A stretch of DNA of 41,096 nt, taken from Macrostomum lignano. Taxonomy: Eukaryota. Within the stretch, counting starts at the first letter, position 1; each line of letters begins with the position of its first letter. The stretch covers positions 1 to 41,096 of the forward strand of contig NIVC01004591.1 in NCBI GenBank assembly GCA_002269645.1. The letters run 5' to 3'. The notes below the pieces were generated by a model. That model had not been told where the DNA came from. It made no database searches and saw only the letters and a list, made by a program, of their open reading frames with translations. A program made the translations under genes and the position numbers. Shown in pieces: positions 2,892-41,096 of the stretch.

Positions 2892-3551
2892 GGGATAGCG
2901 ACGTTTGCCTGCGGGACGCTTGCCAGCCGACGTTTGCCTGCGGGACGTTTGCCAGCCGACGTTTGCCTGCGGGACGTTTGCCAGCCGACGTTTGCCTGCG
3001 GGACGTTTGCCAGCCGACGTTTGCCTGCGGACGTTTGCCAGCCGACGTTTGCCTGCCGGAAGTTTGCCAGCCAAAATTTGCTAGCCAATATAAAGCCAGT
3101 CAGTGAAAAATTTGATACTGAAATATTCGCAGTTTAGCGGTTTGACAAAAACCGTTTTTACTCCAACTTTTTGACGGTTATTCGCATATATACAAGTTTG
3201 AAAGCAAAATATATAAATTATGCAGTTCATCAGTCTAACGTCTAATATCTAGTTTACCAACGATTTTGGCTCAACATATCAAAAGATGAACATTGGGTTT
3301 ATATATTTTGCTTTCAAACTTGTATATATGCGAATAACTGTCAAAAAGTTGGAGTAAAAATGGTTTTTGTCAAACCGCTAAACTGCGAATATTTCAGTAT
3401 CAAATTTTTCACTGACTGGCTTTATATTGGCTAGCAAATTTTGGCTGGCAAACTTCCGGCAGGCAAATGTCGGCTGGCAAACGTCGGCTGGCAAATGTCG
3501 GCTGGCAAACGTCCCGCAGGCAAACGTCCCGCAGGCAAACGTCGTAGACCC
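2892..3551. mobile_element. Non-autonomous foldback / MULE-like DNA element, copy 1 (660 bp, near-palindromic)
   Basis: Termini GGGATAGCGACGTTTGCC...GGCAAACGTCGTAGACCC. Arms of ~300 bp are inverted and built of 14/15-bp ACGTTTGCC repeats plus a ~130-bp unique inverted segment. Flanked by direct AAATTTTC (2884-2891, 3552-3559). Confidence 0.85.
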
Positions 3552-13248: not shown

Positions 13249-13500
13249 CCAAAGGCTTCCTGATCAGTAGGGAGCAGCCGATATTTGTCAGCGATTGGGT
13301 GGCCCATCGACACTCGCAGACAGGAGGAGGGGGTGAGAGCCGAGCTGTCTGTCATTCTTGGCCAATCCTCAGCCAATGACAGCTGCGCCCTATACCCTAT
13401 CTATAATTCATTAATAGTTTGGGGACAGCGTTGGCCTACGCAAGGCCACACTGAACCCTCTCTGTAGCCCGTAGTCTCAGGACTCTGTAAGCCACACAGC

Positions 13501-14079
13501 ATGTCAGGCACGGGTGTTCAGCTGCCGTTTTTTCAACCGTCTCTACAGAAACAGTCAGCTGGCAACGGAACCGTTGTCGGTAACTACAGCATGCCGCCGC
13601 TGGACCCTCGCTGGGTGAACTGCTCCCATCACTGGAAGAGTCGGACCCATTCAAGCGACACTGCCGCTATGCGTCGGTTTTATGTCTGCATGAACGCCAG
13701 CGAACTCTTAGCGGTATTCGATTCGACTAAACACGAATTGACTGACACGAGAAACAGGGAGTTCCCGATTCTGGTTGGCATCATCAGCGTCTACGCCTTG
13801 TTTATCCTGTTCGGCACATTCGGCAATGGCATGGTCATCTACACGGTGCTGAGGAACCGGCACATGCAGACGGCCAGGAACCTGTTCATCGTGAACCTGG
13901 CCGTGTCCGACTTCACCCTCTGCGCCGTCACGCAGCCGCTCAATATTATTCGACTGTTTCAATACTATGTCGGCTGGCCACTGGGAATGGCATTGTGCAA
14001 GATGGCAAACATGCTGACTGGAGTGAACATGTTTGTGTCTGCTTTCTCCATCACGGCTGTGGCTCTTGATCGATTCAGG
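13501..14079 (+). CDS. Rhodopsin-family peptide GPCR, neuropeptide Y/F receptor-like, exon 1 (N-terminus to TM3)
   Basis: GTFGNGMVIYTVLRNRHMQTARNLFIVNLAVSDFTLCAVTQP (TM1-GN, TM2-NLAxxD), W-P-L-G-x-x-LCK, and AVALDRFR, followed by a phase-0 donor AGG|GTGAGT (579 nt = 193 codons). The exact start Met is uncertain. Confidence 0.93.
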
Positions 14080-14139
14080 GTGAGTTCTGCTCAATTCGAT
14101 CATGCTTCCTGCTCTTGTAACTGAAATACAATAATAATG

Positions 14140-14390
14140 ATTGATTACACCTGCCACAATGGATGTGCAACCGACAGCTCAGCCGCAGCTATTGCGCGGC
14201 GCATCTGAAGGCTGCGTACGGCTGTTCAGTTCAAGGACTGGGGGGTCGCCACACAGCCTCAATTACCCCAGCTAATGCTGGCACCCATTTTACAGCTGGG
14301 TGAACTGAAGCAATGCAGAGTTAAGTGTCTTGCTCAAGGGAATCGACCCTCCGACCTTCAAGTCATGAGTCCGACGCTCTGTCCGTCCAC
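14140..14390 (-). mobile_element. tRNA-derived SINE, copy 1 (in GPCR intron)
   Basis: Reverse complement matches 23802-24076: degenerate tRNA-like head, core TTGAGCAAGACACT...CACCCAGCTGTAAAATGGGTGCC, and a shared 3' tail. Confidence 0.85.
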
Positions 14391-19322: not shown

Positions 19323-19514
19323 CTTTAATTAAAGTAAATAGAACTAATTTTAGGTTGCTTTCAACAAAATTTTTAAGGTAAAAACACCTTGACTGACGCA
19401 GCGCTGGTTGTGGGACGATTTATCGCCAAAGGCGTTGCGACAGGGTGCCTGCAGCCCTCCTGCAAATATTTTATTTACTTTTACAAGGCACTCCGCTCTC
19501 CCGACTCCGAGCAG

Positions 19515-20402
19515 GTGATCCTGTACCCGACACGGACCCAGATCAGCAAGACCAACCTGGCCCTCACCCTGCTGTGCATCTGGGGCTCCGCCTGTCTGGT
19601 CGCCAGCCCGCTGGCCGTCTTTGCCACCAACGCCTTCAACAAGCTGATGATCCCGCCGGTGAACCTGTGCATGGAGAGCCCGGAGAGCTGGCTGGTCAAG
19701 CTGGTGTACAGCATCGCCGCCATGCTGCTGCAGTCGGTCCTGCCGCTGACCATCGTGTCCGCGGCTTACGCCGTCATCTACCATCGCATGCAGCAGCGCG
19801 CCCGCCAGACCAAGGAGCGGCGCGCCCTGACCGCCGCCACCGGGGTTGCCGCCGAGCGCGCCGCCGCCGAAGCGATGCGACAGCGCCGGGCCACTGGCCT
19901 ACTGGTTGCCATCAGCGTCACATTCGGCATCAGCTGGCTGCCGTTGAGCGTCGGCAACGTCATTCACGATTGGCGCTATTTCCGCGCACCGAAGCAGCTC
20001 CAGGAGTGGAAGAACGGACCGCCAGCCTCCGAGTCCAGCAGCAACAGCAACATCCTGATTGTGGCCTCTCAGTGCGCCACTCTGCTCATCGTGCTGGTGT
20101 CCGCCTGTCTCAATCCCATCTTCTACGGCTGGTTCAACGAGAATTTTCAAACGGAGTTCCAACGGATGCTCTGCTCGAGTCGGCTGGCCGTGGGCAGGTT
20201 CAAGTTTCAGCAGCCGCAGACGCAGCAGAAGGAAAAGCAGCAGCAGCAGCAGCAGCAGCAGGAGCAGCAACCAGAGGCCATTCCACTGGCTTGTCTAGAC
20301 GCCAATGGCGACGCCAAGGACAGCGGCGACGGCGACGAGGGCGGAAAAGTCCTGCTGACCGTGGCGGAGGTGGAGCCATCGCTTGAAAGCGGTTTCGTTT
20401 GA
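19515..20402 (+). CDS. NPY/NPF receptor-like GPCR, exon 2 (ICL2 to C-terminus, poly-Q tail)
   Basis: gagcag|GTG ATC CTG TAC CCG gives DRFR|VILYP (canonical DRY-x-x-I-x-x-P). TM6 FGISWLPL, TM7 SACLNPIFYGWFNENFQTEF (NPF-receptor-like). Spliced product about 488 aa. Confidence 0.93.
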   Translation: MILYPTRTQISKTNLALTLLCIWGSACLVASPLAVFATNAFNKLMIPPVNLCMESPESWLVKLVYSIAAMLLQSVLPLTIVSAAYAVIYHRMQQRARQTKERRALTAATGVAAERAAAEAMRQRRATGLLVAISVTFGISWLPLSVGNVIHDWRYFRAPKQLQEWKNGPPASESSSNSNILIVASQCATLLIVLVSACLNPIFYGWFNENFQTEFQRMLCSSRLAVGRFKFQQPQTQQKEKQQQQQQQQEQQPEAIPLACLDANGDAKDSGDGDEGGKVLLTVAEVEPSLESGFV

Positions 20403-23801: not shown

Positions 23802-24076
23802 GGGGGTTGTAGCCTATAGCGGTTAGAGCGTCGGACTCACTACTTGAAGGTTGGAGGTTCGATTCCTTGAGCAAGACACTTTACTCTGCATTTCTTCAGT
23901 TCACCCAGCTGTTAAATGGGTGCCAGCATTAGCTGGGGTAATTGAGGCTGTGTGGCGACCCCCCAGTCCTTGGACTGAACAGCCGTACGCAGCCTTCAGA
24001 TGCGCCGCGCAATAGCTGCGGCTGAGCTGTCGGTCGCTCATCTGCACATTGGGGCAGGTGCAATCAGTTAGTATTT
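23802..24076 (+). mobile_element. tRNA-derived SINE, copy 3
   Basis: GGGGGTTGTAGCCTATAGCGGTTAGAGCG (A-box-like)...GGTTCGATTCC (B box), then core TTGAGCAAGACACT...CACCCAGCTGTTAAATGGGTGCC, and a tail shared with copies 1 and 2. Confidence 0.88.
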
Positions 24077-26893: not shown

Positions 26894-27408
26894 ATTTTAC
26901 CTATTGCTTCAAGAAGATAGAGATACAGTATAAAATATAATAAAAACTTCATCACAGACATAAAACAAGCTACAATGCAACCGGCCCCAATGTTTTACAT
27001 TAGTATTATTTAAATGCTCACAGTTTGCAAGTAAAATCGTCCGTCTAATGAACATTCTTCGGTACAATCAAATTAAATCAAGAGCTGAGATGATTTCTTA
27101 GAATACACTGCGATGTTGCCCAGACTACTGTTGCATGTCAGATCCGAGAACGGAGACAGACAGCAGACAGAGCACTACGAGTATCAGAGCACTTTAAAAA
27201 TACATATTAACTGTCTGTTTCTCACTCTCGCTCCGGCGCTCTCTCCTAGTCTGCTATTGACGGCTGCTATATTATCCTTTTGCTGCCATAGGCGGCCGCG
27301 TCAGGAACATTTTAATGAAAATTTTCACTGTGCTGCAGTCAACTATGAGTGAAGAGGGTTGGATGTCCGGAAGCAGAATGAGTGACGCTTTACTGAGAAT
27401 TGGGAAGA

Positions 27409-29270
27409 ACCGTAGATTAAGACAGACCTATCTTCTTCTACCGTAGATTAAGACAGACCTATCTTCTTCTACCGTAGATTAAGACAGACCCATCTTCTTC
27501 TACCGTAGATTAAGACAGACCTATCTTCTTCTACCATAGATTAAGACAGACCTATCTTCTTCTACCATAGATTAAGACAGACCTATCTTCTTCTACCGTA
27601 GATTAAGACAGACCCATCTTCTTCTACCGTAGATTAAGACAGACCCATCTTCTTCTACCGTAGATTAAGACAGACCTATCTTCTCCTACCGTAGATTAAG
27701 ACAGACCCATCTTCTACCGTAGATTAAAACAGACCCATCTTCTTCTACCGTAGATTAAGACAGACCCATCTTCTACCGTAGATTAAAACAGACCCATCTT
27801 CTTCTAACGTAGATTAAGACAGACCCATCTTCTTCTACCGTAGATTAAGACAGACCCATCTTCTACCGTAGATTAAAACAGACCCATCTTCTTCTAACGT
27901 AGATTAAGACAGACCCATCTTCTTCTACCGTAGATTAAGACAGACCCATCTTCTACCGTAGATTAAGACAGACCCATCTTCTAACGTAGATTAAGACAGA
28001 CCCATCTTCTTCTAACGTAGATTAAGACAGACCCATCTTCTTCTATCGTAGATTAAGACAGACCCATCTTCTACCGTAGATTAAAACAGAACCATCTTCT
28101 TCTAACGTAGATTAAGACAGACCCATCTTCTACCGTAGATTAAGACAGACCCATCTTCTACCGTAGATTAAGACAGACCCATTTTTTTCTACCGTAGATT
28201 AAGACAGACCCATCTTCTTCTACCGTAGATTAAGACAGACCCATCTTCTTCTACCATAGATTAAGACAGACCCATCTTCTTCTACCGTAGATTAAGACAG
28301 ACCCATCTTTTTCTACCGTAGATTAAGACAGACCCATCTTCTATCGTAGATTAAGGCAGACCCATCTTCTTCTATCGTAGATTAAGACAGACCCATCTTC
28401 TTCTACCGTAGATTAAGACAGACCCATCTTCTATCGTAGGTTAAGACAGACCCATCTTCTATCGTAGATTAAGACAGACCCATCTTCTTCTACCGTAGAT
28501 TAAGACAGACCCATCTTCTTCTACCATAGATTAAGACAGACCCATCTTCTTCTACCGTAGATTAAGACAGACCCATCTTCTTCTACCATAGATTAAGACA
28601 GACCCATCTTCTTCTACCGTAGATTAAGACAGACCCATCTTCTATCGTAGGTTAAGACAGACCCATCTTCTATGGTAGATTAAGACATACCCATCTTCTA
28701 TCGTAGGTTAAGACAGACCCATCTTCTATCGTAGAATAAGACAGACCCATCTTTTTCTACCGTAGATTAAGACAGACCCATCTTCTTCTACCGTAGATTA
28801 AGACAGACCCATCTTCTTCTACCATTGATTAAGACAGACCCATCTTCTTCTACCGTAGATTAAGACAGACCCATCTTTTTCTACCGTAGATTAAGACAGA
28901 CCCATCTTCTTCTACCATAGATTAAGACAGACCCATCTTCTTCTACCGTAGATTAAGACAGACCCATCTTCTATCGTAGATTAAAACAGACCCATCTTCT
29001 TCTACCGTAGATTAAGACAGACCCATCTTCTACCGTAGATTAAGACAGACCCATCTTCTATCGTAGATTAAGGCAGACCCATCTTCTTCTACCGTAGATT
29101 AAGACAGACCCATCTTCTTCTACCATAGATTAAGACAGACCCATCTTCTTCTACCGTAGATTAAGACAGACCCATCTTTTTCTACCGTAGATTAAGACAG
29201 ACCCATCTTCTATCGTAGATTAAGACATACCCATCTTCTTCTATCGTAGGTTAAGACAGACCCATCTTCT
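27409..29270. repeat. 28/31-bp satellite (ACCGTAGATTAAGACAGACCCATCTTCT[TCT]), ~60 units
   Basis: Uninterrupted array ending mid-unit at the LTR boundary. Confidence 0.97.
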
Positions 29271-29271
29271 C

Positions 29272-31486
29272 TGATGTAACCGCCCTTGTCGCCTGTCCGC
29301 TCCGTAGAGAGACGAACGCATGACTAGAGGGGGCAATGACCGTAGGCTGCCTATGACCGGGCAATGACCTGACGGACCTCCAGCACCAGACTGTCCCGCC
29401 CACATGATTAGTAGCTTTGGTAGCGCTTCGTGACCAGAGGGCCAAGGACCCACATGGACCCCACCTGTAGCCAAGGTGCAATAGTTGGTCACTCGGTCAT
29501 GGTATGACCGAGTGGCTGCCACCACTCTATGTGACCTGGCGCACCTGGATCTTTCTACCAGACCTCTCGAGGCTAGAGCCCCGCCTGGATTGGTTACCAG
29601 GGGATTTAGGCTAACAGGGGAGACGCATGCAGCCGAGTACAGGGACTCTGCTTGGGGCATGATCGGGAACTCTGGGCTCAATCCTGGAGGATTTCTCAGC
29701 AGGGGATCCTTTGTGGCTGTGAGCGAGGCTGACTTGCGACTTTGATTACTAAGAGTAGTATGAGGCGAACATGTACTGTCTACAGTTTAGATTGCTCAGG
29801 GCGAAGGGACGCGTCAGCATGGGGTTGCAACCTTCCTACTGCCATTCTGTGCCAAGACTCGCTAATCCCTCTACTGCACGCACACGCGGCCCCGCAGCAC
29901 GCACTCACAGGCGGGCTTTGCACGGGGAGAGGCCATTAGCTTACCCAAACTTCCTTATGCTTTGCCACCCCGGGAGAAAGGCTTAGCAAGCCATGAGTGA
30001 AAGGATGGTGAAAGATTGAATAATGATGAAGTTAGTTAATAGTTAATAATTAGGCCCTTAGGCAAATAAGCAGGCAATTAGGCGGCTTCACTATTGAGTA
30101 AAATACAGCAAAAGATACGGTATCACAATTGGCTCAGCTCTCTAATCAGACAATGGAAAATAGGCAAACCCCGGATAAGCAAAGGCAATTAGAGCACAAA
30201 TTAGTAACAGGAACTTACCGGCAGCTGCACAGAGAGAGAGAGAGGCGGAGTGACCGGGGCGGCTGTAGGCTGCAGTCAGGCAGACGGTGAAGCGGCGATG
30301 CGCTGGAGCGACGAGGCGCTGATGTAGATCAGGCGATGCTGATGATGCTGGGCGGTGTCAGACCGCTGGCCGATAGGCGAGCTCACTTGGGGAGCTAAGG
30401 ATAACTTGGCGGTAACAGACCGCGGACCGGCAGGGATTCGTCTTATAGACGAATGGGTCAGAACTCAATCTGACAGCAAGTCCAAAGAAGGACGAGGAGA
30501 GGAAAGAGATAAACTCAGTTGAGTATTCTCATGCCGAAATCGCTTCCTTTTATAGACCTCACAGCCGCCTCCTCAAGGTCGTTACCATGGCTCCCTCTCT
30601 CTGATTGGCTGCCGGCAGAATGACGTCAGAATGAGTCATGATGAGAAGCATGAGACCGGCATAGCAACATGAGAAATCGGGAAATTGCGCAATCCGGAGG
30701 TGGGGTGGGGGGATAATTGGCGCAGCGGGTGGTCGCGAAAGTGTTGCGCAAGCAAACATTGAGAACAATAGGGCTGGGGTCGAGAACAAAGGAATTGGAA
30801 ATCGGGGATAATTGGGGAAAACTGAGAACAATGGAAAAGTAAACATTGGAGAAAAGGTGATAATTAGGTGCGAAAACGAGAACAAAAGAAAGAGAAAATC
30901 GGAGAAAATGTGATAATTGGTGGGGGTCGAGAGAACAAAAGAAGCAAAAACGAGAACAATAGAAGCGGAGGTGGGGTGGGTGTCACATGAGAAATTTGGG
31001 AAGGAGAACAATAGCGTGAGAAAAGGTTGCGCAAGAGAGGGGGATGAGTCATCGATGAGTCACCGAGGGGGAGAAGGGGTCACACGACTTGCGTCACCGT
31101 TTGGGAGTTTGAGAGGGGATGGGGAGACGGTGAGCACACAAAGTACTGTAAGTAGACACAGGGAAAGAGGGGACAGCGCAGGAAAAGAGTGCAGAGGGAG
31201 ACAAAAAAAGGAGGAGGTAGAGAAAGTACAGGAAGAATAGGGCGGGAACAGAAGAGATAGGGTAGAGGGGGAGGTACAGAAAGGGGTAGGGGCTCCGGAA
31301 AGGCAGGTGTGGCGGCAGGAGAGACGGGACCAAGGCAGCAGGAGGGGTGCAGCAGAGCGGGAGTCTCCAGGCCCGGTCGGAGACCTGGCCGAGTCTCGAC
31401 AGCTCTGTGCAGAGGGTGCACGGGATAGGAGGCACTTTCGAAAAAGTTCCCATGCCCTATCCCGCGACCAGAGCGTGGTTACATCA
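29272..31486 (-). repeat. 3' LTR, 2215 bp
   Basis: 10-bp terminal inverted repeat TGATGTAACC...GGTTACATCA. The first ~890 bp are repeated at 40210-41096. Confidence 0.9.
30548..30640 (-). promoter_or_regulatory. LTR core promoter: TATAAAA (30554-30548), CCAAT (~30604-30608), CRE TGACGTCA (30621-30628), AP-1 TGAGTCA (30632-30638)
   Basis: Motifs seen in the order expected for a - strand U3 promoter. Function is inferred. Confidence 0.6.
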
Positions 31487-31505
31487 CACCCCCACTGCCT
31501 TTTGT
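31487..31505 (-). other. Polypurine tract
   Basis: - strand ACAAAAGGCAGTGGGGGTG directly precedes TGATGTAACC of the 3' LTR. Confidence 0.7.
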
Positions 31506-32540
31506 GACGGAACTGGTTCCGTCATCATCACTGCCCAACATGGAACCACACAGACGGGAGCGGGACCTCAACCGAACGTGAAATCACAGAATTAACAAAC
31601 CGCGAGCGGGAATGGAAAAAGGCGATAAAATAGAGGGGATAGCAATAAATTCACAAACGAGATACATAGGTTGGAGTGCAATACAGAATTTCAAAAATTT
31701 CAACTGTTGCTGTGGCTAAAGTGGGAGGGGGGAAACACAGACAGCGCAATAGTAGGGAGAAAAATAGCGAATTGTCAACAATAAATTATCATAATTGGAT
31801 AGAAGCGCAGCTGGGAAAGAGAGGAAACGGGGAAGGGTGAGGGAAGTGGGGAAAAAGAAGGGGGAAGGGTTGCTAGCACACAGCCAAGGGCAGAGCCTCG
31901 GGGAGAATGACGATTACACAGGGGAAAAATACTAATGCAGCGCAGTAAATTAATAAGCTAATTTCGCCGGGAGTTCAACCGCACGGAGGCCTAGCGTCCT
32001 TGAAGGCTCGGACCCCGCTTCAGCCAGTCAGAGGGCTTCGGGGCGATCGGTTGTAGGCTGGGAGGCGCCGCGCCGTGCGCTGGCCACTGTATAAAAGGCG
32101 CCACTGATAACGGGAGCCGGCTGCCTGCAACCTACACGGAGTCGCAGTTTCCAACCAAGGCACTCAGCGCGATTTTCCAAACTATACAACTACTCGGTAA
32201 GTCCCATCACCAACCTGATTTCCTTTCGCCTATACGTTAAACGAAATCTACCCACTCGCCATGCCTTTCGTTTTAAACTGAGCCAATTGCAGTAATAATA
32301 TATGGCCTTTCTTACGGTAAAAGTAGTGAGCAGCCAACACAGAGCCATTTTTAGGAATTTTTAGAATAATGACACAACAATGACTCGTATATTGGTTATT
32401 AAAGTTTAAAAATGAATATTATGGAAGAACCGAATATTAATAGGATAATTTCACACACACACAACAAACACACAACGCAAGGGGGCGGAAAGGCGGGTCG
32501 GACCGGCCGGCGGACGTCGCTCAGCAGGCAGTCAGCATCC

Positions 32541-33890
32541 TTACTCGAAATGGGCCTCTTGATTTAGCTGGTACGGGCCATATGCCGCCACCTGAGCCAT
32601 GGCACTTGCCCATGCTTCCACATAACGTTGGGCTGCCGCGGCCGTGAGCACCACTCGGTGCCATCGGCTAGGCAAGATGTCGTTGCGCAGCACGCCCCTC
32701 AACTGCGGCAGAGTCGGGATGCCCAGGGCTTGGCATTGGACGACGAAGGCCGCATTCCGTACTTGTTGCAGCCGTGTCAGAGTTGGTGCAGACAGGGGCG
32801 GCTGCGCGATTGCAAAATGCTGCAAAGTGCCACGGGGCACCTCGGCCAGGCCCGCGTAGCCGGGCTCAACGTCGCCCAGGGCCGCCAACACCCACCCACA
32901 GCGGCGATTGAACCGTTGCGAGAGAGTGGCGGCCCAGGCCACTGTGGCAAACGGCGCATAGAGGAGGGGCGCAGAGGCCGGCGCGGAGGCCGCAAGAATG
33001 CCGTCGTGGATGACGAGAGCCTCTTCCCATTCGGCGCCCTCGCTCAGGAAGCCCCAGAGCAGCCCTGGCAGGTCCGCAGGAAGCATGCCCCAGCGGCTGG
33101 CCAAGCTGGCCAGGCCAATCAATAGCCGGGCTCTCTGGGTTGGTGTCAGTTGTCTAGTCATCTGAGAGGAGGCTGCGCAGCTGATGATCACCTTCTTGTA
33201 GACCGGCCGATCGCAGGTGCTGAAGATTGCTGTGATGGGGGCACAGGACGGCGGCCGGGCTGTCAGGTGTGATGGTTCCTCATCCACAACCTTGCGGAGG
33301 AACTTGGCGGCCTGCCGGACTAGGTCGCCGAGGGCGTATTTGTAGGCGCTCTGGGCCGCTGCCTCGATGTACATTAACAGCGTATTGTCAACCAATCCCA
33401 GCAGGGCCGCTTTTGACAGGATGAGCAGACAGGGCCGGTCCAGGTTGTCGCGAAGTTGGCGCTCTAGAGTCGCATGCCTGTCCTCGGCCTGGAGTGGGCC
33501 ATGATAGGACTCAGGCCCGACCCAGTGCACCAGATCCATAGCTGTCGCCGAAGGTTCGCCAGCCACCTGACCCCAATCGACTTCTTCTCTTTGCAGGGCG
33601 ATGTCCACACTTCGGCGGCTGTTGGGCAGAACATCACGCAGGCGGCGGGCCGCCTCGCCGAATTCGGCCGCCAGGTCCGAAATGTCTGCGGTGTCGCCCC
33701 CAGCATTGGCCGGGTCGATTGTCTCGTCACCTTCTTCGACCCTGGCGGAGGCCGCCGCTGGCGGCTCGGGGCCGTCCTCCGCCTCTTGGATGGCGTCACG
33801 GGGCCGCTTTCGGCTAACTGGGCTGGCAGGACGCTCAGACGGTAAGCTGGAGCATAGCTGAATTCGATTGATGGTAGGCTTCGTGTCCAT
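32541..33890 (-). CDS. Element ORF3, 449 aa hypothetical protein (possibly ~562 aa from 34228 if one base is missing near 33891)
   Basis: Long uninterrupted non-repetitive ORF. Acidic/Pro-rich N-terminus with RKRPR, then a helical-looking body. No family recognised. Confidence 0.75.
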   Translation of the reverse strand: MDTKPTINRIQLCSSLPSERPASPVSRKRPRDAIQEAEDGPEPPAAASARVEEGDETIDPANAGGDTADISDLAAEFGEAARRLRDVLPNSRRSVDIALQREEVDWGQVAGEPSATAMDLVHWVGPESYHGPLQAEDRHATLERQLRDNLDRPCLLILSKAALLGLVDNTLLMYIEAAAQSAYKYALGDLVRQAAKFLRKVVDEEPSHLTARPPSCAPITAIFSTCDRPVYKKVIISCAASSQMTRQLTPTQRARLLIGLASLASRWGMLPADLPGLLWGFLSEGAEWEEALVIHDGILAASAPASAPLLYAPFATVAWAATLSQRFNRRCGWVLAALGDVEPGYAGLAEVPRGTLQHFAIAQPPLSAPTLTRLQQVRNAAFVVQCQALGIPTLPQLRGVLRNDILPSRWHRVVLTAAAAQRYVEAWASAMAQVAAYGPYQLNQEAHFE

Positions 33891-35889
33891 GTCAAGCTGG
33901 ATAGTTCATAGAATGCTTCAGCGATTGAAGGACAGAATGATTTCTCTGATTGATGATTTCCAGCTCTGGCAGGCGTGGGTCTTCTTATAGTGCCGGGGCT
34001 GGCTTCCCATTGGTTGAGCACATTGGGAGGCACACCTGCTGCGGCCGGGGTCGCCGTTGGCTTGGGACCGCTCGCTCTAGTCTCCGTGCGCTCTGATTGG
34101 CTGGTTCCGCCGCTTCCTGTTTCCTCACCTGTGAGCAGGGGGCAGACCCGAGACCACCTCCGGTCGCGCCCGCGGCAGATCCGTACTCCAGCCGACAGAG
34201 ATCGCACTCCCACCTCACATGCACACATTCAGATCAGGCACACAAATTAATTTGGTTAATATGAATAGAAGAGGGATTTGGGAGATTAGACTCCGGAGGA
34301 TAAATGATGATGCGGCCCAACTCCCTTCGATTTCTTCCTTCAACGCCACGCGCACGCAGTTCTCATCCATGCCTCCGAGACCCTCATAAACTTAACAGCC
34401 GAAAGAATTCGAAAGAGGAATTAATCATTAATTTGACTGCCACCAGTTTGATGTACTATTATAAAAGAGAAAGGGGAACCTACCACCATCTTGGCGCATT
34501 ACAAAGAAAAGAAAAGGAGGATCAGCCACCATTTTGAGAGAGGTTGCTAGGGAAAACTGCCACCAATTGTACATTAACAGGGAAGAGAAAGAGGGAACCC
34601 GTCACCAATTAGAGTGGATTGCCCGGGGAAACTGCCACCATTTGCCCTTCTACCAGAGGAGAGGAAGACGAAAAACTGCCATCACTTAGAGGTGTATCAT
34701 TAAAAGAAGGCGGGGAAGAAGGCTACCACTACTTGATCACCTAGAGCTCAAGGGAAGGAGAGGGAATGAAGAAAGGAAGAAACCCCCAGGAAGGCCACTA
34801 CCACACGCCATAAAGTTAAAATCCCCATCTATCTACATCCTAATACCCGGCTAGTTCCCTACTTCTATTTCATCCCTTAAATTCTCATTTTCAGGATTCC
34901 GGCCGCTAGTAGCCGAGCCCATCCTTGAAGAGGAGTCCGACTACGAAGCGCCCGAAGACAGCCATTCAGAGCCGGACGCCCCCTCTGATTCTGGGCCGGC
35001 TGCGCCATCTGGTGACATAGGCGCCGCGGCTCCCGGGCCATGCGACCGCCGGCCGCCAGCGAACCAGCGTCCGGGGCCGGTTGGCATCCGGTACCACCGC
35101 CGTTGTCAGCCCGAGCGCACGCTCCGCCGCCGGTCGCCGCGGTGACGCCCGTGGCTGCCGCTCCACAGCCCTTGCCAACCCCTGTGGTGGAGACCGACGG
35201 CTCCTGGCATTTGGTCGTGCTGTCGACGGCCCTAATAGCCGGTCTCACAATGCACTGGCTACTGCTCTTGGAGCTATTTCTGCGGCTTCCCAACTGCTGA
35301 TGCTGGTGGTTCTTAATGCTTACTTACTAATTCTGAACTATCTGTCCCCATAACTTGACTTTAATTACTTACCTGACTTTACATTGACTAAACCACTGGC
35401 CTACTCTAAACTAATTGCTGCCCCATTTGCCTGATAAACTTAATTACATTGAATGCCCCCCCCCTATTGCCTCATCGAAACCAATTAAAAGTTTCCCAAA
35501 ATCGGACTTTCACAAAGTGTGAACAAACACACGAAATCAGACCTAAAGGTGCTAATTTCCTACGGTCCCAGACTTCCATTGTTCCCAGAAAATCTTAAAC
35601 AGCGGGGCAGGACCTCCTGTGGAGCAGACCCATAGAAATTTTACTAGTTTCCAAGTTAATATTTACTGATAGGGAATTAACGCATACTGTACGGGCCTAA
35701 TTTTCGAGCTAAAATCTTAGATATTTAAACAACACCAACGAGCACGAGGTCACAACATAAATTCGAGTAATAGAGGGCATACGTAAATACGCGAAAAGCG
35801 GTCTCCAACGGGGCAACACGAGCAAAATTTCGACACGCGAATCGGGGGGGGGGAATTAAGCAATCACTGGCTAGCTACCGATCTGTTAC

Positions 35890-36414
35890 TCAGCGGGGGT
35901 CGAATGGGAGACTCACACCTAGCAAGTAAACCTTTTCTGTTCGATAGTCTATGATAGCATGCGTACTGGCTAGAAAAGCACTACCCAGGAGGGAAACTGC
36001 TGCTGAATTGCCAACGACCAGAAAGAGGATTCTCACCTCTTCTAGCCCAATAACTGCTGTGAGGGTGGCCTGGCCTAGCATCTCTAATTCATTGCCCGTG
36101 TAGGACACGGCCTTCACACATGGGGGCTCCAGGGCCTCCACACTCTGTCCGGTAATTTTAGTAAAGTCTTTGACTGTTAGCAAAGACAGCGCACTGCCCC
36201 CATCTACCAGGAGGCGGGTGGGAACATTCTCAATTGGCAACTCTACAACAATATCTCTCCCGCGTTGTCCTCCAGCTGGTCTTGGCTGATAGAAATCGGG
36301 TACCTTCTCAAATCTAAACTTCTTGCTGGGCGGACGTGGCAGGTTAAGCTGGGCCCTAGAGAGGGAACGGGGCTGAGTTCGGGCCGGGCCATTCAGCCCT
36401 CCCACGGGTTTCCC
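35890..36414 (-). CDS. pro: Retropepsin-like aspartic protease, -1 frame relative to gag
   Basis: PIENVPTRLLVDGGSALSLL (D-x-G-S active-site motif), ...GNELEMLG..., SLLGSAFL...IIDY (ILGxDFL-like motif). Stops at TGA 35892-35890. Confidence 0.85.
   Translation of the reverse strand, partial: GKPVGGLNGPARTQPRSLSRAQLNLPRPPSKKFRFEKVPDFYQPRPAGGQRGRDIVVELPIENVPTRLLVDGGSALSLLTVKDFTKITGQSVEALEPPCVKAVSYTGNELEMLGQATLTAVIGLEEVRILFLVVGNSAAVSLLGSAFLASTHAIIDYRTEKVYLLGVSLPFDPR
36370..36414 (-). other. -1 programmed ribosomal frameshift signal
   Basis: In-frame G GGA AAC heptamer (36414-36408), then a GGGCTGA/TCAGCCC hairpin (36399-36370). A -1 shift enters the protease frame (PVGGLNGPAR...). Confidence 0.8.
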
Positions 36415-37838
36415 GAACCCGGGGGCTCTTCAGGCGTGGAAGGAGGAGGCATCAGAGCTTGCGCGCGCAGCTGGGCGAGCCTCTCCTGCCTCTCCCTGGT
36501 AGCCTCGTCTAACATATCTCTGCCCCACTCCTCTAAATCTTGCCTATGGCGATCAGGTGGCGCACGAAGCTGCAATTGCTGCTGCTGCACACCCGGCGCC
36601 GGCGGCGTGGGCGCCTCCTGAATTGCAAGCGGCGGGGGCTGGGGTTGGCGCCAGTTCCTACTGCTATTAGAGCCGCCCTGCCCCTGCCTCCAGTTCCTGT
36701 TGGGAGTGGCGGGGCGAGGGGGCCTCATCTGCTGGGGCAGCTGGGCAACAGACTCTGCTGTCGCCTTCATAGTTTCATTGAGCTGCACCAGCTGGTTGCG
36801 CAGATCCTTTTGCGTTTGCTCTAGCGCGCCCAACCTCTCTTGCATCTCTGATAGGCCGTCACCGTCCTCCTCCGTCTCGTCAGCTTCCTGGTTCACCATC
36901 CTGACCCACTTGCGAGGGGGCCTGGGTGGCTGCTGAGGTTGCAGACGGACTTCGGTGCGGGACTCAGACCTGGGCGGGCCACTACTGTCCCATTTCCCGG
37001 CTAAGTCTGCGGCTTCTAACAGGGCTTGCTGCTGTTCTAACACCTGCTCAATTGTCTGCCAGCGACGGCTCAACAGATCTTGTCTGACCTGGCGGGGGAG
37101 CTTAGCGTGTTCCAAGTAGGTGTACACGATTTCTTGTTCTCTCTGCTCACCCTGAATCTGAGGAAACATGGCCGTTATCTGAGATCTTATCATAGCAGCA
37201 AAAGCACTATGTGATTGGCCGGGTTTCTGGCTCAGATTCTTCAGCTTATTTCTCTTAGCCAGATCAGTGTTGGCCTCGCCCAACTGCTCTCCTAATCTAG
37301 ATACGAACTGCTCAAAGGGCAATTGCCCGTCCAATCCTAAGGCTAAGTTCTGAAATTCACCTGGGAGGTGCGAGATGAGCACCTGCTTCCTAGCCTGATC
37401 TCCTACAGTTCTCTCCGCGTCCAGCTTGTAGATCATTCTCTCTACCCATTGCACAAAACAGTGTTCGCCGGGAGAGAACTTTTCTACGTAGATTTTCGGC
37501 CTCTGGGCGTCTTGGCCCATGTTTAGCTGGTTAAACGCATTGGCTATAGCGGCAACTAAGTCTCCTAGCTGCGGGACTGCCTGAGGAGGATTCTGGGCTG
37601 CGTCCGGGGGAGCAGCGGCGGCTGCTGCGCCACCCTGATTGGGAGCGGGAGCTGCTACTCCTTCATCTGGTTCCTCAACTACTACTGCTTCTGGAGGCTG
37701 AGGGACCTGGTTACCAGCGGCTGCGGCCATTGCGGCTGCGGGGGCGGCAACTGCTGGGGTGTCAGCGGCCGAGGGTGGTTGACCAGGGGCGTCTGCGCAC
37801 ACAGCTTCTACGACCCTATCTCCACGCGCCCGTGACAT
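36393..37838 (-). CDS. gag: Ty3/gypsy Gag (capsid), 481 aa, no CCHC zinc knuckle
   Basis: EKFSPGEHCFVQWVERM and KLKNLSQKPGQSHSAFAAMIR resemble retrotransposon capsid motifs. Position is downstream of the PBS and upstream of the protease. Confidence 0.85.
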   Translation of the reverse strand: MSRARGDRVVEAVCADAPGQPPSAADTPAVAAPAAAMAAAAGNQVPQPPEAVVVEEPDEGVAAPAPNQGGAAAAAAPPDAAQNPPQAVPQLGDLVAAIANAFNQLNMGQDAQRPKIYVEKFSPGEHCFVQWVERMIYKLDAERTVGDQARKQVLISHLPGEFQNLALGLDGQLPFEQFVSRLGEQLGEANTDLAKRNKLKNLSQKPGQSHSAFAAMIRSQITAMFPQIQGEQREQEIVYTYLEHAKLPRQVRQDLLSRRWQTIEQVLEQQQALLEAADLAGKWDSSGPPRSESRTEVRLQPQQPPRPPRKWVRMVNQEADETEEDGDGLSEMQERLGALEQTQKDLRNQLVQLNETMKATAESVAQLPQQMRPPRPATPNRNWRQGQGGSNSSRNWRQPQPPPLAIQEAPTPPAPGVQQQQLQLRAPPDRHRQDLEEWGRDMLDEATRERQERLAQLRAQALMPPPSTPEEPPGSGNPWEG

Positions 37839-40188
37839 GTGAATGCCGGATAGCTGGGGGAGTACCCACTACCGGGAAGGAAAAGAAAAGAAAACCGGGG
37901 CAACTACAGGTAAAGACCGAAAAGTTGATCCGAAACACACAAACACACTCACACACACACAAACACAGACAAAACCACACACTTGCGGCGTCGAAGAAAA
38001 CAAATTGAAAAACGGGTGGCTCCACATAATTCCATTTAGGCAGTCCTAACGGCTTCACTCGGCAAAGCACACTGACTCAAACTGCGGCTACCACTACCAG
38101 TTGTCTATGGCACATCCTGACAGGGAAAAATTGGCTATTCAGAGAGACTTGACCTTCATTTTGCGGCCATGCTAGGGAACCCAAATGCCGACCGTAAACG
38201 GACTTACGGCACCTGTACAAATTCTCCCCTAGGGTTGCGCGCCGGACCCCATTTCCTTAAGAAAGCTACTACGAAGAAGCGTTGGCGCCTGGACCCAAAA
38301 ACCCAAGTGGCGGGAGCAATCCCCATGGAGGTCCTCCCACTTTACTGCCCTTGCACAGCCGGAAAACCGTCGGAGTCCAGTGGGGCTTCCACCTCAGGAC
38401 TACCAATCTTGTACACGCAGCTTCACAAAAGGCGGGAATCCAGCTCCCCTACGTCTAGCAGAATCCACAAAAACCAAGACCTCCCCCTTCTGTTCAGAGC
38501 GAAGGCGCGCAGCGGGAGTCCAGACTAAACTGTCCCCGAAGTTTTCAGGTTAGGCGGATTACAAGCCTGAAACTCTCGCCCGCTTTCCTAGGATAAACAG
38601 ACCTAAGTGAGTATCTTCCTGAAATGCTTGCCCCTCCGATACTCCACCTTTGCTGCAGCTCGAAATAGCATACTTGGGACCTTTATCTGATGGCGGAGAA
38701 AGTCCTACAGTTGTCAGCCTCTCCACTTTACTGTACTTGAACGCCCGGTTCTACCAGGAGACAGCGGTACCTCCATCTAGGTTATTCCAAGTTGCCAGAG
38801 ACGTCAACCCGTCTTATTGACCTTGCGGGGCACTGGGGTGGCACTCTATGTACCGGGGCTTTACATTAGGGGACTGCATGCAACCCTGCGTCTAAGCGCT
38901 TAGTGGGCTGCAGTGGCCAGAGGGGAAAAGAGTTGCGCAATAGCGCCTTCCTGGGCCAGGCTGACAAGTCGGGCAGGAGCGCCGTTCTACCGGGTCGGGC
39001 TGATTGGCACACCCACCTCCCCTATCAGACTGACAGCAGGGGGGAGGAATTACTAAAGGAGGAGAATGCAGCAGGAAACATTACGAGATCACTGGGGGCC
39101 ACCAGACTTCCAGTACACCATTCCAATACTCACTGAACTCCACTATCAATAGGATACTATGGGATCTACTATTTCCAGCCACTGCACCAGCCCAAATGCA
39201 ACCAAAGCAGTTACTACCGGGTCTGCAATACAGTGGGGAGAGTCAGCAGACACGTTGGGATCGAATCCCAGCCATGAAGGCACCAGGGGTTACCGCAGAA
39301 TTCAGGTCCGGGCTGATCGCAGGTATTCCATAGGAGGTGACACTTTTTTTAGCCCGAGATTTTTGAGTCACACTGATACCCTACAGAGATACAATCACAC
39401 CGCTATTCCCATTCCTGCGAGACTTTGGTATCCCCCAATGTTTCCAAGGCCATGACTACTGCTTCCCTTACTATGCATATATAGCGAGTTCCCCATAGCC
39501 CTTGATAGCTGTTCATTCTAATGGACAAACAAAACACGCTCCGGTCTCTACGCATTTCTAGGATTAACTGAGCGATCAGGGAGAGCGACTGTTACACTCC
39601 CCGAGTAAAAGAAAGAGGTAGGACAAAGGAAAGAAATGCTTCGCTTCCAGCTTCCCTGTGCTTGCGTGATGAGGCTTCCGTACCTGGCTGGCTGTCCACC
39701 TCAACACTCACACAGTTCTGCTGTAGGCTAGGCGAGAGAAAGAAAGGGAGGGGAAATAAAGCATATTACCATGAAATAGAAAGTGAGTCCGGAAAATTCA
39801 CTTTCGCAGTTCTTCACACACTCCGTTACCAGGTAGCTATTCTGATTGTAATCAAATCCGCTCGTCTACCACTTCACACTTTCTAGCGCTGAAACTGATC
39901 GGCTAAATTAATTTTAAATTGAATCAGGGGCTTTTGGCGAATGAATGAATTTGGAAATTTCGAATGAATTGAACGAATTCGCAGCCCGAAAAATTTGAAA
40001 AGTTACATTAATATTTTTGGATTTTGTTGCCTCACGCCATGGGAGAAGAGAATGACGATTGGCGATTTTTACGATTGGTAGATTTAGACATGGCACTCTT
40101 TGCGCTTCGGCCACCATTCTGAGGGATGCCACAGGTGCGCTTGTCACATCTAAACCACCAGTCCGAAACTCAGCGCTGTTTGCACCAG

Positions 40189-40206
40189 ATCCCACCGCTG
40201 CCACCA
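40189..40206 (-). other. Primer binding site complementary to the 3' end of tRNA-Leu
   Basis: - strand TGGTGGCAGCGGTGGGAT, 3 nt after the LTR end. The + strand ATCCCACCGCTGCCACCA equals the conserved eukaryotic tRNA-Leu(AAG-type) 3' end including CCA. Confidence 0.9.
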
Positions 40207-40209
40207 TTT

Positions 40210-41096
40210 TGATGTAACCGCCCTTGTCGCCTGTCCGCTCCGTAGAGAGACGAACGCATGACTAGAGGGGGCAATGACCGTAGGCTGCCTATGACCGGGC
40301 AATGACCTGACGGACCTCCAGCACCAGACTGTCCCGCCCACATGATTAGTAGCTTTGGTAGCGCTTCGTGACCAGAGGGCCAAGGACCCACATGGACCCC
40401 ACCTGTAGCCAAGGTGCAATAGTTGGTCACTCGGTCATGGTATGACCGAGTGGCTGCCACCACTCTATGTGACCTGGCGCACCTGGATCTTTCTACCAGA
40501 CCTCTCGAGGCTAGAGCCCCGCCTGGATTGGTTACCAGGGGATTTAGGCTAACAGGGGAGACGCATGCAGCCGAGTACAGGGACTCTGCTTGGGCATGAT
40601 CGGGAACTCTGGGCTCAATCCTGGAGGATTTCTCAGCAGGGGATCCTTTGTGGCTGTGAGCGAGGCTGACTTGCGACTTTGATTACTAAGAGTAGTATGA
40701 GCGAACATGTACTGTCTACAGTTTAGATTGCTCAGGGCGAAGGGACGCGTTAGCATGGGGTTGCAACCTTCCTACTGCCATTCTGTGCCAAGACTCGCTA
40801 ATCCTCTACTGCACGCACACGCGGCCCGCAGCACGCACTCACAGGCGGGCTTTGCACGGGGAGAGGCCATTAGCTTACCCAAACTTCCTTATGCTTTGCC
40901 ACCCCGGGAGAAAGGCTTAGCAAGCCATGAGTGAAATGATGGTGAAAGATTGAATAATGATGAAGTTAGTTAATAGTTAATAATTAGGCCCTTAGGCAAA
41001 TAAGCAGGCAATTAGGCGGCTTCACTATTGAGTAAAATACAGCAAAAGATACGGTATCACAATTGGCTCAGCTCTCTAATCAGACAATGGAAAATA
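40210..41096 (-). repeat. 5' LTR (partial, U5 end)
   Basis: Matches 29272-~30162 except for 2 substitutions and 4 single-base homopolymer indels, counted by eye. Confidence 0.95.

Follow-up and report, generated by a model that had tools for sequence, protein, structure and literature searches.

The window analysed here, 41,096 nucleotides of Macrostomum lignano contig NIVC01004591.1, carries on its minus strand a long terminal repeat (LTR) retrotransposon with a third open reading frame (ORF3) downstream of gag and a protease (PR) frame. The order of the element is LTR, primer-binding site (PBS), leader, gag, a slippery heptamer with a predicted hairpin, PR with its stop, a 2-kb spacer, ORF3, a 1-kb spacer, a purine tract and the second LTR (Table 1). 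Hallmarks of Ty3/gypsy LTR elements are present, namely TG...CA LTRs, a PBS, a polypurine tract and, in two other elements checked, flanks that fit a short target duplication. What departs from the norm is that protease, reverse transcriptase (RT), RNase H (RH) and integrase (IN) do not occur together in one element: no RT, RH or IN follows the protease in the window, and these three are encoded, without PR, by a partner element. We judge it fairly likely that ORF3 is an accessory pseudo-SGNH gene and that it belongs to one half of a two-part LTR retrotransposon, the other half of which encodes RT-RH-IN and no protease.

The Gag-protease element and its polymerase partner

Searches with gag and with the element junctions yielded 10 partner elements of the same family (family A). 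The 3' junction lies at 32319 in all 10 and the 5' junction near 37629 in nine, the tenth being cut by a contig end; LTR, PBS, leader and the start of gag (to about 37629) are common to the window element and its partners. The partner has a single ORF, 1553 aa in intact copies, in which a diverged capsid-like core is followed by RT, RNase H and integrase. Its pol starts in what is, in complete elements, the spacer after the protease, at about the position of the protease stop in the window. None of the 13 partner stretches, which represent 12 elements (10 from family A and two from family B; one cut short), was matched at E<10 by a protease profile seeded from 10 natural proteases, while this profile did match 11 of 11 held-out complete elements (E 1.5e-9 to 6e-43). 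Across 54 exact LTR/PBS sites we counted 24 Gag-PR elements with ORF3, 20 Gag-PR elements without an ORF3 match (four of which run into a contig end), eight partners and two truncated copies, and not one of the 54 holds both a protease and RT. The protease-less partner is the most unusual feature of the system and was overlooked in the first-pass annotation, which had put ORF3 in the pol/env position 3' of pol; that placement is not borne out, as the element has no pol and ORF3 is instead preceded by the protease and an antisense ORF.

Two candidates for other arrangements were rejected. An apparently complete element with an ORF3 homologue (C100:602500, L099) proved on mapping to be a complete element inserted into a family B copy, and a protease match on C621 (L110) belongs to a different element upstream of the 3' end of a family B partner.

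LTR pairs in the two elements checked (C100 and C936) are 99.4 and 99.5% identical, with flanks that fit 4-bp duplications, and those of the window element are 99.3% identical over the part present. Both halves are young and integrate alike. In the Gag-PR half, the Pfam family gag-asp_proteas reaches E 0.021 against the protease frame and misses the cut-off, and an Rfam scan of 29000-41096 returned nothing. The PBS is presumably tRNA-Leu-like. Judged from the sequence, the leader is probably an intron in the mRNA; positions 37880-40147 lack contig cover in 3 of 4 sequencing runs that we guess to be RNA, a weak hint in the same direction.

The pairing recurs in a second family (family B), which was found through its protease and is 46% identical to family A in gag and ~42% in PR. 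It has its own protease-less partner with its own matched LTR. The partner RTs form one clade (support 100/99), and the capsid cores of all four types cluster apart from complete elements (86/94; 100 in a second tree by the Shimodaira-Hasegawa-like approximate likelihood ratio test, SH-aLRT). Separate origins of the split in each family were rejected by the approximately unbiased (AU) test (p 0.003 each; quick tree, 15 rows). These trees indicate that one ancient split lies behind the pairs of both families. In a family B partner (L083:7917-8105), the last ~40 ORF3 codons are retained directly after the pol stop, which suggests that the 3' end of this partner derived by recombination from the Gag-PR-ORF3 half.

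Table 1. Features of the Gag-PR element and of the overlapping antisense frame, in window coordinates
Feature	Position	Strand	Remarks
5' LTR	40210..41096	-	cut by contig end; 99.3% identical to 3' LTR over 891 columns
PBS	40189..40206	-	identical in pol partner
Leader, 2.3 kb	37839..40188	-	common to pol partner; acceptor-like AG at 37905-37904 and 37870-37869
gag, 481 aa	36393..37838	-	first ~45 residues common to partner ORF; DNA similarity to 37629
Slippery heptamer GGGAAAC with predicted 3' hairpin	36408..36414	-	likely -1 frameshift into protease
Aspartic protease frame	35890..36429	-	active-site motif DGG; stop at domain end; matched by protease profile
Antisense exon 2, acidic, Pro/Ala-rich	34895..35300	+	hydrophobic C-terminal segment (hydropathy 2.15)
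PBS-like array, 9 degenerate motifs ~40-75 nt apart	34437..34803	-	one motif resembles the LTR-end/PBS junction
Antisense intron, GT-AG, 1053 nt	33842..34894	+	donor and acceptor read; contig joints
Antisense exon 1, coding part, 80 codons	33601..33841	+	Arg-rich start; overlaps ORF3 codons 17-97; in phase with exon 2
ORF3, 449 aa	32541..33890	-	ATG start; 15 of 30 fetched copies alike; dN/dS in text; subject of the study
ORF3 residues 140-285	33036..33473	-	predicted helical bundle, basic (pI 9.2); no fold matched with confidence in models spanning more than the bundle
ORF3 residues 286-441	32568..33035	-	predicted alpha/beta, SGNH/GDSL fold; H295-D296-G297 at the G-D-S block
3' non-coding segment with purine-rich tract	31487..32319	-	common to pol partner
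3' LTR, 2215 bp	29272..31486	-	TG...CA, terminal inverted repeats; TATA-like box near 30550; donor-like GT at 30218

ORF3 and the antisense frame: conservation and predicted fold

As annotated in the first pass, ORF3 is an open ATG frame of 449 codons on the gag strand. A DNA search of the genome gave 43 matches; an intact 449-aa frame is present in 15 of the 30 loci fetched, the other 15 being indel-broken or incomplete. The proposed fusion with an upstream frame through a missing base, giving ~562 aa, has to be abandoned: the fused frame occurs in none of the 30 loci, the bases flanking the start codon are identical in all 30, contigs from deep runs cross the site near 33891 without a gap, and the upstream frame is absent among the C100 ORFs of at least 130 aa.

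Against the copy on C100, ORF3 shows 77% protein identity, with dN 0.144, dS 1.33 and dN/dS 0.109 (confidence interval 0.07-0.15); 227 of the 351 differences fall at third positions, and shifted-frame controls gave dN/dS of 1.6 and 3.7. The family B homologue occupies the same position in its element and is 22-24% identical, with a dN/dS of 0.115. ORF3 is a real, conserved gene, and the idea of an accessory gene under selection stands, the ratio being nowhere near 1. Between the same two copies, dS is 1.33 in ORF3, 0.16 in gag and 0.02 in PR; given near-identical gag and PR next to a diverged ORF3, old ORF3 variants appear to have been exchanged between carriers. Three ORF3 copies (L074 = C616, C3989 and C3922) are interrupted at one common site near window position 33995, which suggests that they were amplified after the insertion. 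The insert in C616 (L074:3956-6077) is 2.1 kb long, has no Pfam match at 1e-3 and holds what we take to be an integrase-like frame.

Outside this genome assembly, ORF3 is represented by three Logan proteins, P0005, P0007 and P0008, the last a full-length cluster member of 437 aa. An exhaustive HMMER search of 1.84 billion proteins matched the first two and a bacterial TPR (tetratricopeptide repeat) protein, P0006, which was discarded as a spurious, repeat-type match to ORF3 residues 74-114. Pfam found no family at E ≤ 1 in ORF3 and seven homologues, with a library that does detect RT, RNase H and integrase in the pol partner; the absence of matches to these three profiles sets ORF3 apart from pol fragments. 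NCBIfam profiles gave nothing useful, PDB sequence searches gave matches at chance level only, ESM Atlas searches gave no usable match, and no homologue was found in viral contigs. Word-index searches returned no matches, but the method also misses the known homologue P0005, so that this blank carries little weight.

The N-terminus (residues 1-90) is acidic (pI 4.5) and contains, at residues 26-31, the motif SRKRPR, which resembles a nuclear localisation signal (NLS); the motif and an acidic linker had been described before. The nuclear accessory role proposed in the first pass stays putative: the basic motif is present in both family A variants and absent from family B and P0008. There is no clear transmembrane (TM) segment, also as described: the best 19-residue hydropathy is 1.71, within the predicted helical bundle and not near the C-terminus, and homologues reach 1.37-1.64. 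With an acidic, hydrophilic N-terminus and neither signal peptide nor TM anchor, ORF3 is rightly called a non-env protein.

For structure prediction, we used residues 140-449 with a 14-row alignment of about 5 lineages and obtained five models, the best with a predicted local distance difference test score (pLDDT) of 74.9 and a predicted template modelling score (pTM) of 0.77; a full-length model (pLDDT 47) yielded no fold. The helical body read from the sequence in the first pass is supported for residues 140-285 and replaced by a predicted alpha/beta domain for residues 286-441. On the predicted model, this domain has the three-layer alpha/beta architecture of about 150-180 residues expected of an SGNH fold, a likeness of moderate strength. 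The top Foldseek row is E. coli TesA (probability 0.97, E 0.037, with no row at E ≤ 0.001). The top 30 rows of VIA-align (48,161 chains) are SGNH/GDSL entries, judged by title and background knowledge, with OatA as best match (Z 8.8, root-mean-square deviation (rmsd) 4.3, 151 of 179 aligned) and the OSK domain of Oskar (5a4a) at Z 7.0 (rmsd 4.0, 156 aligned, 7% identity); the first non-SGNH fold, that of receiver domains, appears at Z 6.1. A further comparison agrees on SGNH.

H295-D296-G297 closes strand 1, and MAFFT puts this H-D-G onto the G-D-S of the host's own esterase; a comparison with this esterase by hhalign was negative. Because Gly stands at the position of the nucleophile Ser, ORF3 is likely catalytically dead; this Gly is found in 11 of 11 covering rows (alignment A4), in the motifs HDG, HHG or NDG. 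In a by-eye register, which MAFFT did not reproduce, blocks III and V seem to be taken up by L338-G-D-V-E and H411-R-V-V-L-T, without Asn or D-x-x-H; a conserved His411 is nearby. All in all, ORF3 is probably an SGNH pseudo-esterase, neither env nor pol. The gene was probably captured, as considered in the first pass, its C-terminal domain having the predicted fold of a cellular enzyme.

Related complete gypsy families (L090, L093-L096 and L098) have a post-pol ORF in which a disordered N-terminus is followed by a conserved domain of ~110 aa that closes with a W-x(5)-G-W-like motif; the four scanned have no Pfam match. Homology of ORF3 to the C-terminal helical domain of these ORFs looked plausible by eye and gained no support from hhalign (probability 0.1-0.2% with alignments A2 and A3, both shallow profiles). 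Among other gypsy elements, L092:6101-7816 is a post-pol ORF with weak DnaJ and TatD matches, and L133:4675-9411 a pol ORF with a cold-shock domain before the protease.

Also overlooked at first was a spliced antisense ORF that overlaps the 5' end of ORF3 on the plus strand. A joint between 33840 and 34894, with GT-AG when read on the plus strand, is present in contigs of 3 of 5 RNA-guess runs, which come from three studies, and in neither of two deep unlabelled runs; the RNA status of the runs is a guess, and the joint is backed by 28 letters on its shorter flank. In some copies the region of the PBS-like array is 75 nt shorter, giving an intron of 978 rather than 1053 nt. Exon 2 is full-length (134-135 codons) in 31 of 51 distinct copies, the window copy breaking near 35050. 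Its pN/pS is 0.23 against C100 (p 1e-6), 0.59 against C513 (not significant) and 0.46 between C100 and C513 (p 0.005), and the opposite-strand frame that shares its third positions gives 0.33. Exon 2 is under purifying selection. The donor is retained in the diverged C100 copy; conservation of exon 1 is not independent evidence, because its third positions coincide with those of ORF3. An RG-rich antisense ORF occupies this slot in family B too, with a pN/pS of 0.40.

A proposed division of labour and its alternatives

Gene content, shared cis elements, complementary break points, the co-occurrence of pairs in two families and their youth were all observed directly, and from them we infer that the halves depend on each other and that ORF3 has a part in this. 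We lean towards a scheme in which an animal Ty3/gypsy lineage split anciently into two genomes that obligately complement each other, which would amount to a segmented LTR retrotransposon. LTR homogenisation would have preserved the pair as the families diverged, and the dead SGNH and antisense proteins would act in trans to bring both RNAs into one particle. The abundant half would make Gag and, via a -1 frameshift, Gag-PR; the rarer half would make one capsid-like-RT-RH-IN protein that co-assembles through its capsid-like domain and is cut by the protease of the Gag-PR half. Both RNAs would be packaged via the common leader, having the same PBS and LTR, and copied in mixed particles, and the Gag:Pol ratio would be set by the copy ratio and not by the frameshift rate. 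With donor-like sites in the LTR and acceptor-like sites in the leader, full-length RNA would have to escape splicing; ORF3, provided in trans, may be an adaptor without enzymatic activity, binding the unspliced RNA that the halves share and aiding its export or its gathering for assembly.

ORF3 likely acts in trans because it is dispensable in cis (19 Gag-PR copies without ORF3 were seen, and the partner is another ORF3-less element) yet strongly conserved. As to its activity, we tentatively favour the RNA export or assembly adaptor over membrane tethering and anti-silencing, because CERV solves the escape from splicing for C. elegans Cer1, being needed for export of unspliced genomic RNA (PMC10309623), and because Oskar's dead SGNH domain binds RNA (PMC10792757). 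As the SGNH domain is neutral in charge, simple electrostatic binding of RNA or lipid is disfavoured, and nucleic acid would more likely be contacted by the basic helical bundle.

A number of points weigh against this scheme. The family A protease motif is an atypical DGG and its activity is putative; complete gypsy families abound in the genome, and their proteases might act on the partner instead. The genome searches score best candidates only and sequence may be missing from the assembly; in family B, both copies of the partner are frame-broken in the capsid-like region, and long branches meet in the gag tree. No run is recorded as RNA and the contigs are strandless, leaving sense expression of ORF3 putative. 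On the side of the fold, the other four models reach pLDDT of only 63, 57, 46 and 45, blocks III and V were positioned by eye, and the profiles Lipase_GDSL and Lipase_GDSL_2 give no SGNH match. A best Z of 7-8 is common as background in VIA-align and is barely exceeded by 8.8; the SGNH case therefore rests on the convergence of two aligners and two libraries and on full-domain cover. Finally, the SGNH domain is not basic (pI 5.4-8.9), a poor fit to RNA binding, and any binding partner is putative.

The same two-part system could operate with ORF3 as a pseudo-esterase that binds lipids or membranes and ties particle assembly to a membrane or vesicle surface, possibly together with a membrane-anchored antisense protein, and so provides an env-free cell-to-cell route. 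The esterase in ZfL2-1 ORF1 binds acidic phospholipids and liposomes (PMC3905857), a membrane role has been proposed for a rotifer GDSL ORF3 (PMC5408684), and in family A a hydrophobic segment closes antisense exon 2. The ZfL2-1 domain, however, is active and basic (pI 10.8), whereas that of ORF3 is neutral to acidic, and in family B the antisense ORF lacks such a segment (0.94); we regard the tether as doubtful.

Dependence may also run one way, with Gag-PR-ORF3 a semi-autonomous hitch-hiker similar to Sabrina_SA/WHAM and the pol element borrowing protease and Gag from unrelated complete gypsy families or working unprocessed. Semi-autonomous GAG-Pro elements are known (PMC9744471), and both the many complete, protease-bearing gypsy families and the DGG motif would suit such an arrangement. 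It fits less well with an LTR-matched pair in each of two families, with complementary break points, with capsid cores of both halves that form one clade apart from complete elements, or with purifying selection on the family B protease frame (0.21), and we consider it unlikely.

An improbable role, in our view, is that of an anti-silencing or host-conflict factor, whose helical bundle would bind element DNA or chromatin or would act as a decoy for piRNA-pathway proteins. The ORF3 cassette is indeed much more diverged than its carrier, family A has the NLS-like motif, and the helical part weakly matches six N-terminal bundles of tyrosine recombinases among 50 rows (Z ≤ 4.8). But selection on ORF3 is strongly purifying, not diversifying (dN/dS 0.05 for residues 251-449), the recombinase matches are at background level and the motif is not conserved. 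Least probable is that modelling error or a generic flavodoxin-like sandwich gave rise to the SGNH likeness and that ORF3 is an orphan of other origin, as the shallow alignment, the single good model of five, the receiver domains at Z 6.1 and the lack of sequence-level support might suggest, since SGNH entries were reached by two aligners and two libraries, the match covers nearly the whole target domain and MAFFT sets H-D-G on the host esterase G-D-S.

Known systems and genomic surroundings

SGNH cargo itself is already known. Vesta LTR retrotransposons of bdelloid rotifers carry a GDSL/SGNH ORF3 with intact catalytic residues, and SGNH domains also occur in Penelope-like and LINE elements, with dead derivatives in the Penelope-like Athena-L (PMC5408684). 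Our ORF3 resembles that of Vesta in that a gypsy-type element carries the SGNH fold in a 3' ORF of its own that is not env; it differs in the Gly at the nucleophile position, in the preceding helical domain and in a carrier without RT or integrase, where Vesta has gag and pol. With ZfL2-1 ORF1p (PMC3905857) it shares a transposon-borne SGNH domain behind a helical region, but that protein is active, basic and lipid-binding and stands in a gag-like position, whereas the ORF3 domain is neutral and predicted to be inactive. Oskar OSK (PMC10792757) likewise has an SGNH fold without catalytic triad that is used for binding; OSK belongs to a host insect gene, and at 7% identity the likeness is limited to the fold. 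CERV (PMC10309623), which serves a gypsy element as accessory protein and has an enzyme-like domain presumed to be dead, is a functional analogue only: its fold is another one, and it is translated from a spliced sense transcript, the element itself being complete.

For the carrier, the closest comparison is wheat RLG_Sabrina_SA/WHAM, which has GAG and protease without RT or integrase and co-evolves with RLG_Wilma, described as complete (PMC9744471); plant TR-GAG elements are LTR elements with GAG and no RT or integrase (PMC4350172). The window element shares with Sabrina_SA/WHAM the GAG and protease without RT/IN and the PBS and LTR ends common to its partner. There, dependence on the complete helper Wilma is one-way; here, the RT partner is protease-less, and LTRs and leader are near-identical. 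The main texts of PMC12801592 and PMC13524379 contain no relevant mention of the terms searched, although their supplementary family libraries may list these families. Literature searches over openly accessible articles, without their supplements, brought up no description of a reciprocal split that lacks a complete helper. Mouse IAP I-delta-1 is an in-frame, protease-less gag-pol fusion that needs trans-complementation, for which a complete helper exists, and Drosophila HeT-A and TART show a division of labour between non-LTR retroelements. To our knowledge, neither case involves an ancient and reciprocal division at the boundary of the protease.

Non-autonomous LTR elements are usually viewed as parasites of a complete helper; here no such helper was found, and the halves are complementary in two diverged families. 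If dependence is mutual, the system would be a natural model for the origin and persistence of segmented viral genomes, for copy number replacing frameshifting in Gag:Pol control and for the co-packaging of two RNAs, and annotation based on pol only would miss or misfile such systems. ORF3 would add a long-conserved pseudo-SGNH module to retroelement cargo, in parallel to the dead SGNH domain of Oskar.

The genome also contains a family of ~680-bp pieces, numbering dozens, in which the protease has an internal deletion; they are 76-84% identical to the window, and the four fetched (L123-L126: C2239, C2895, C93 and C1113) have no family A LTR match within 5 kb. In the window, a 31-bp satellite array (27341-29271) adjoins the 3' end of the element, and the copies on C936, C598, C1413 and C4418 also lie beside simple repeats, possibly reflecting a target preference. 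Two exons on the plus strand (13468-14124 and 19377-20402) belong to a neighbouring host gene for a rhodopsin-family G-protein-coupled receptor (7tm_1). Long inverted repeats resembling miniature inverted-repeat transposable elements are found at 2987-3528 and at 14162-14339 with 23865-24042 (231 nt and 178 nt, 97% complementary).

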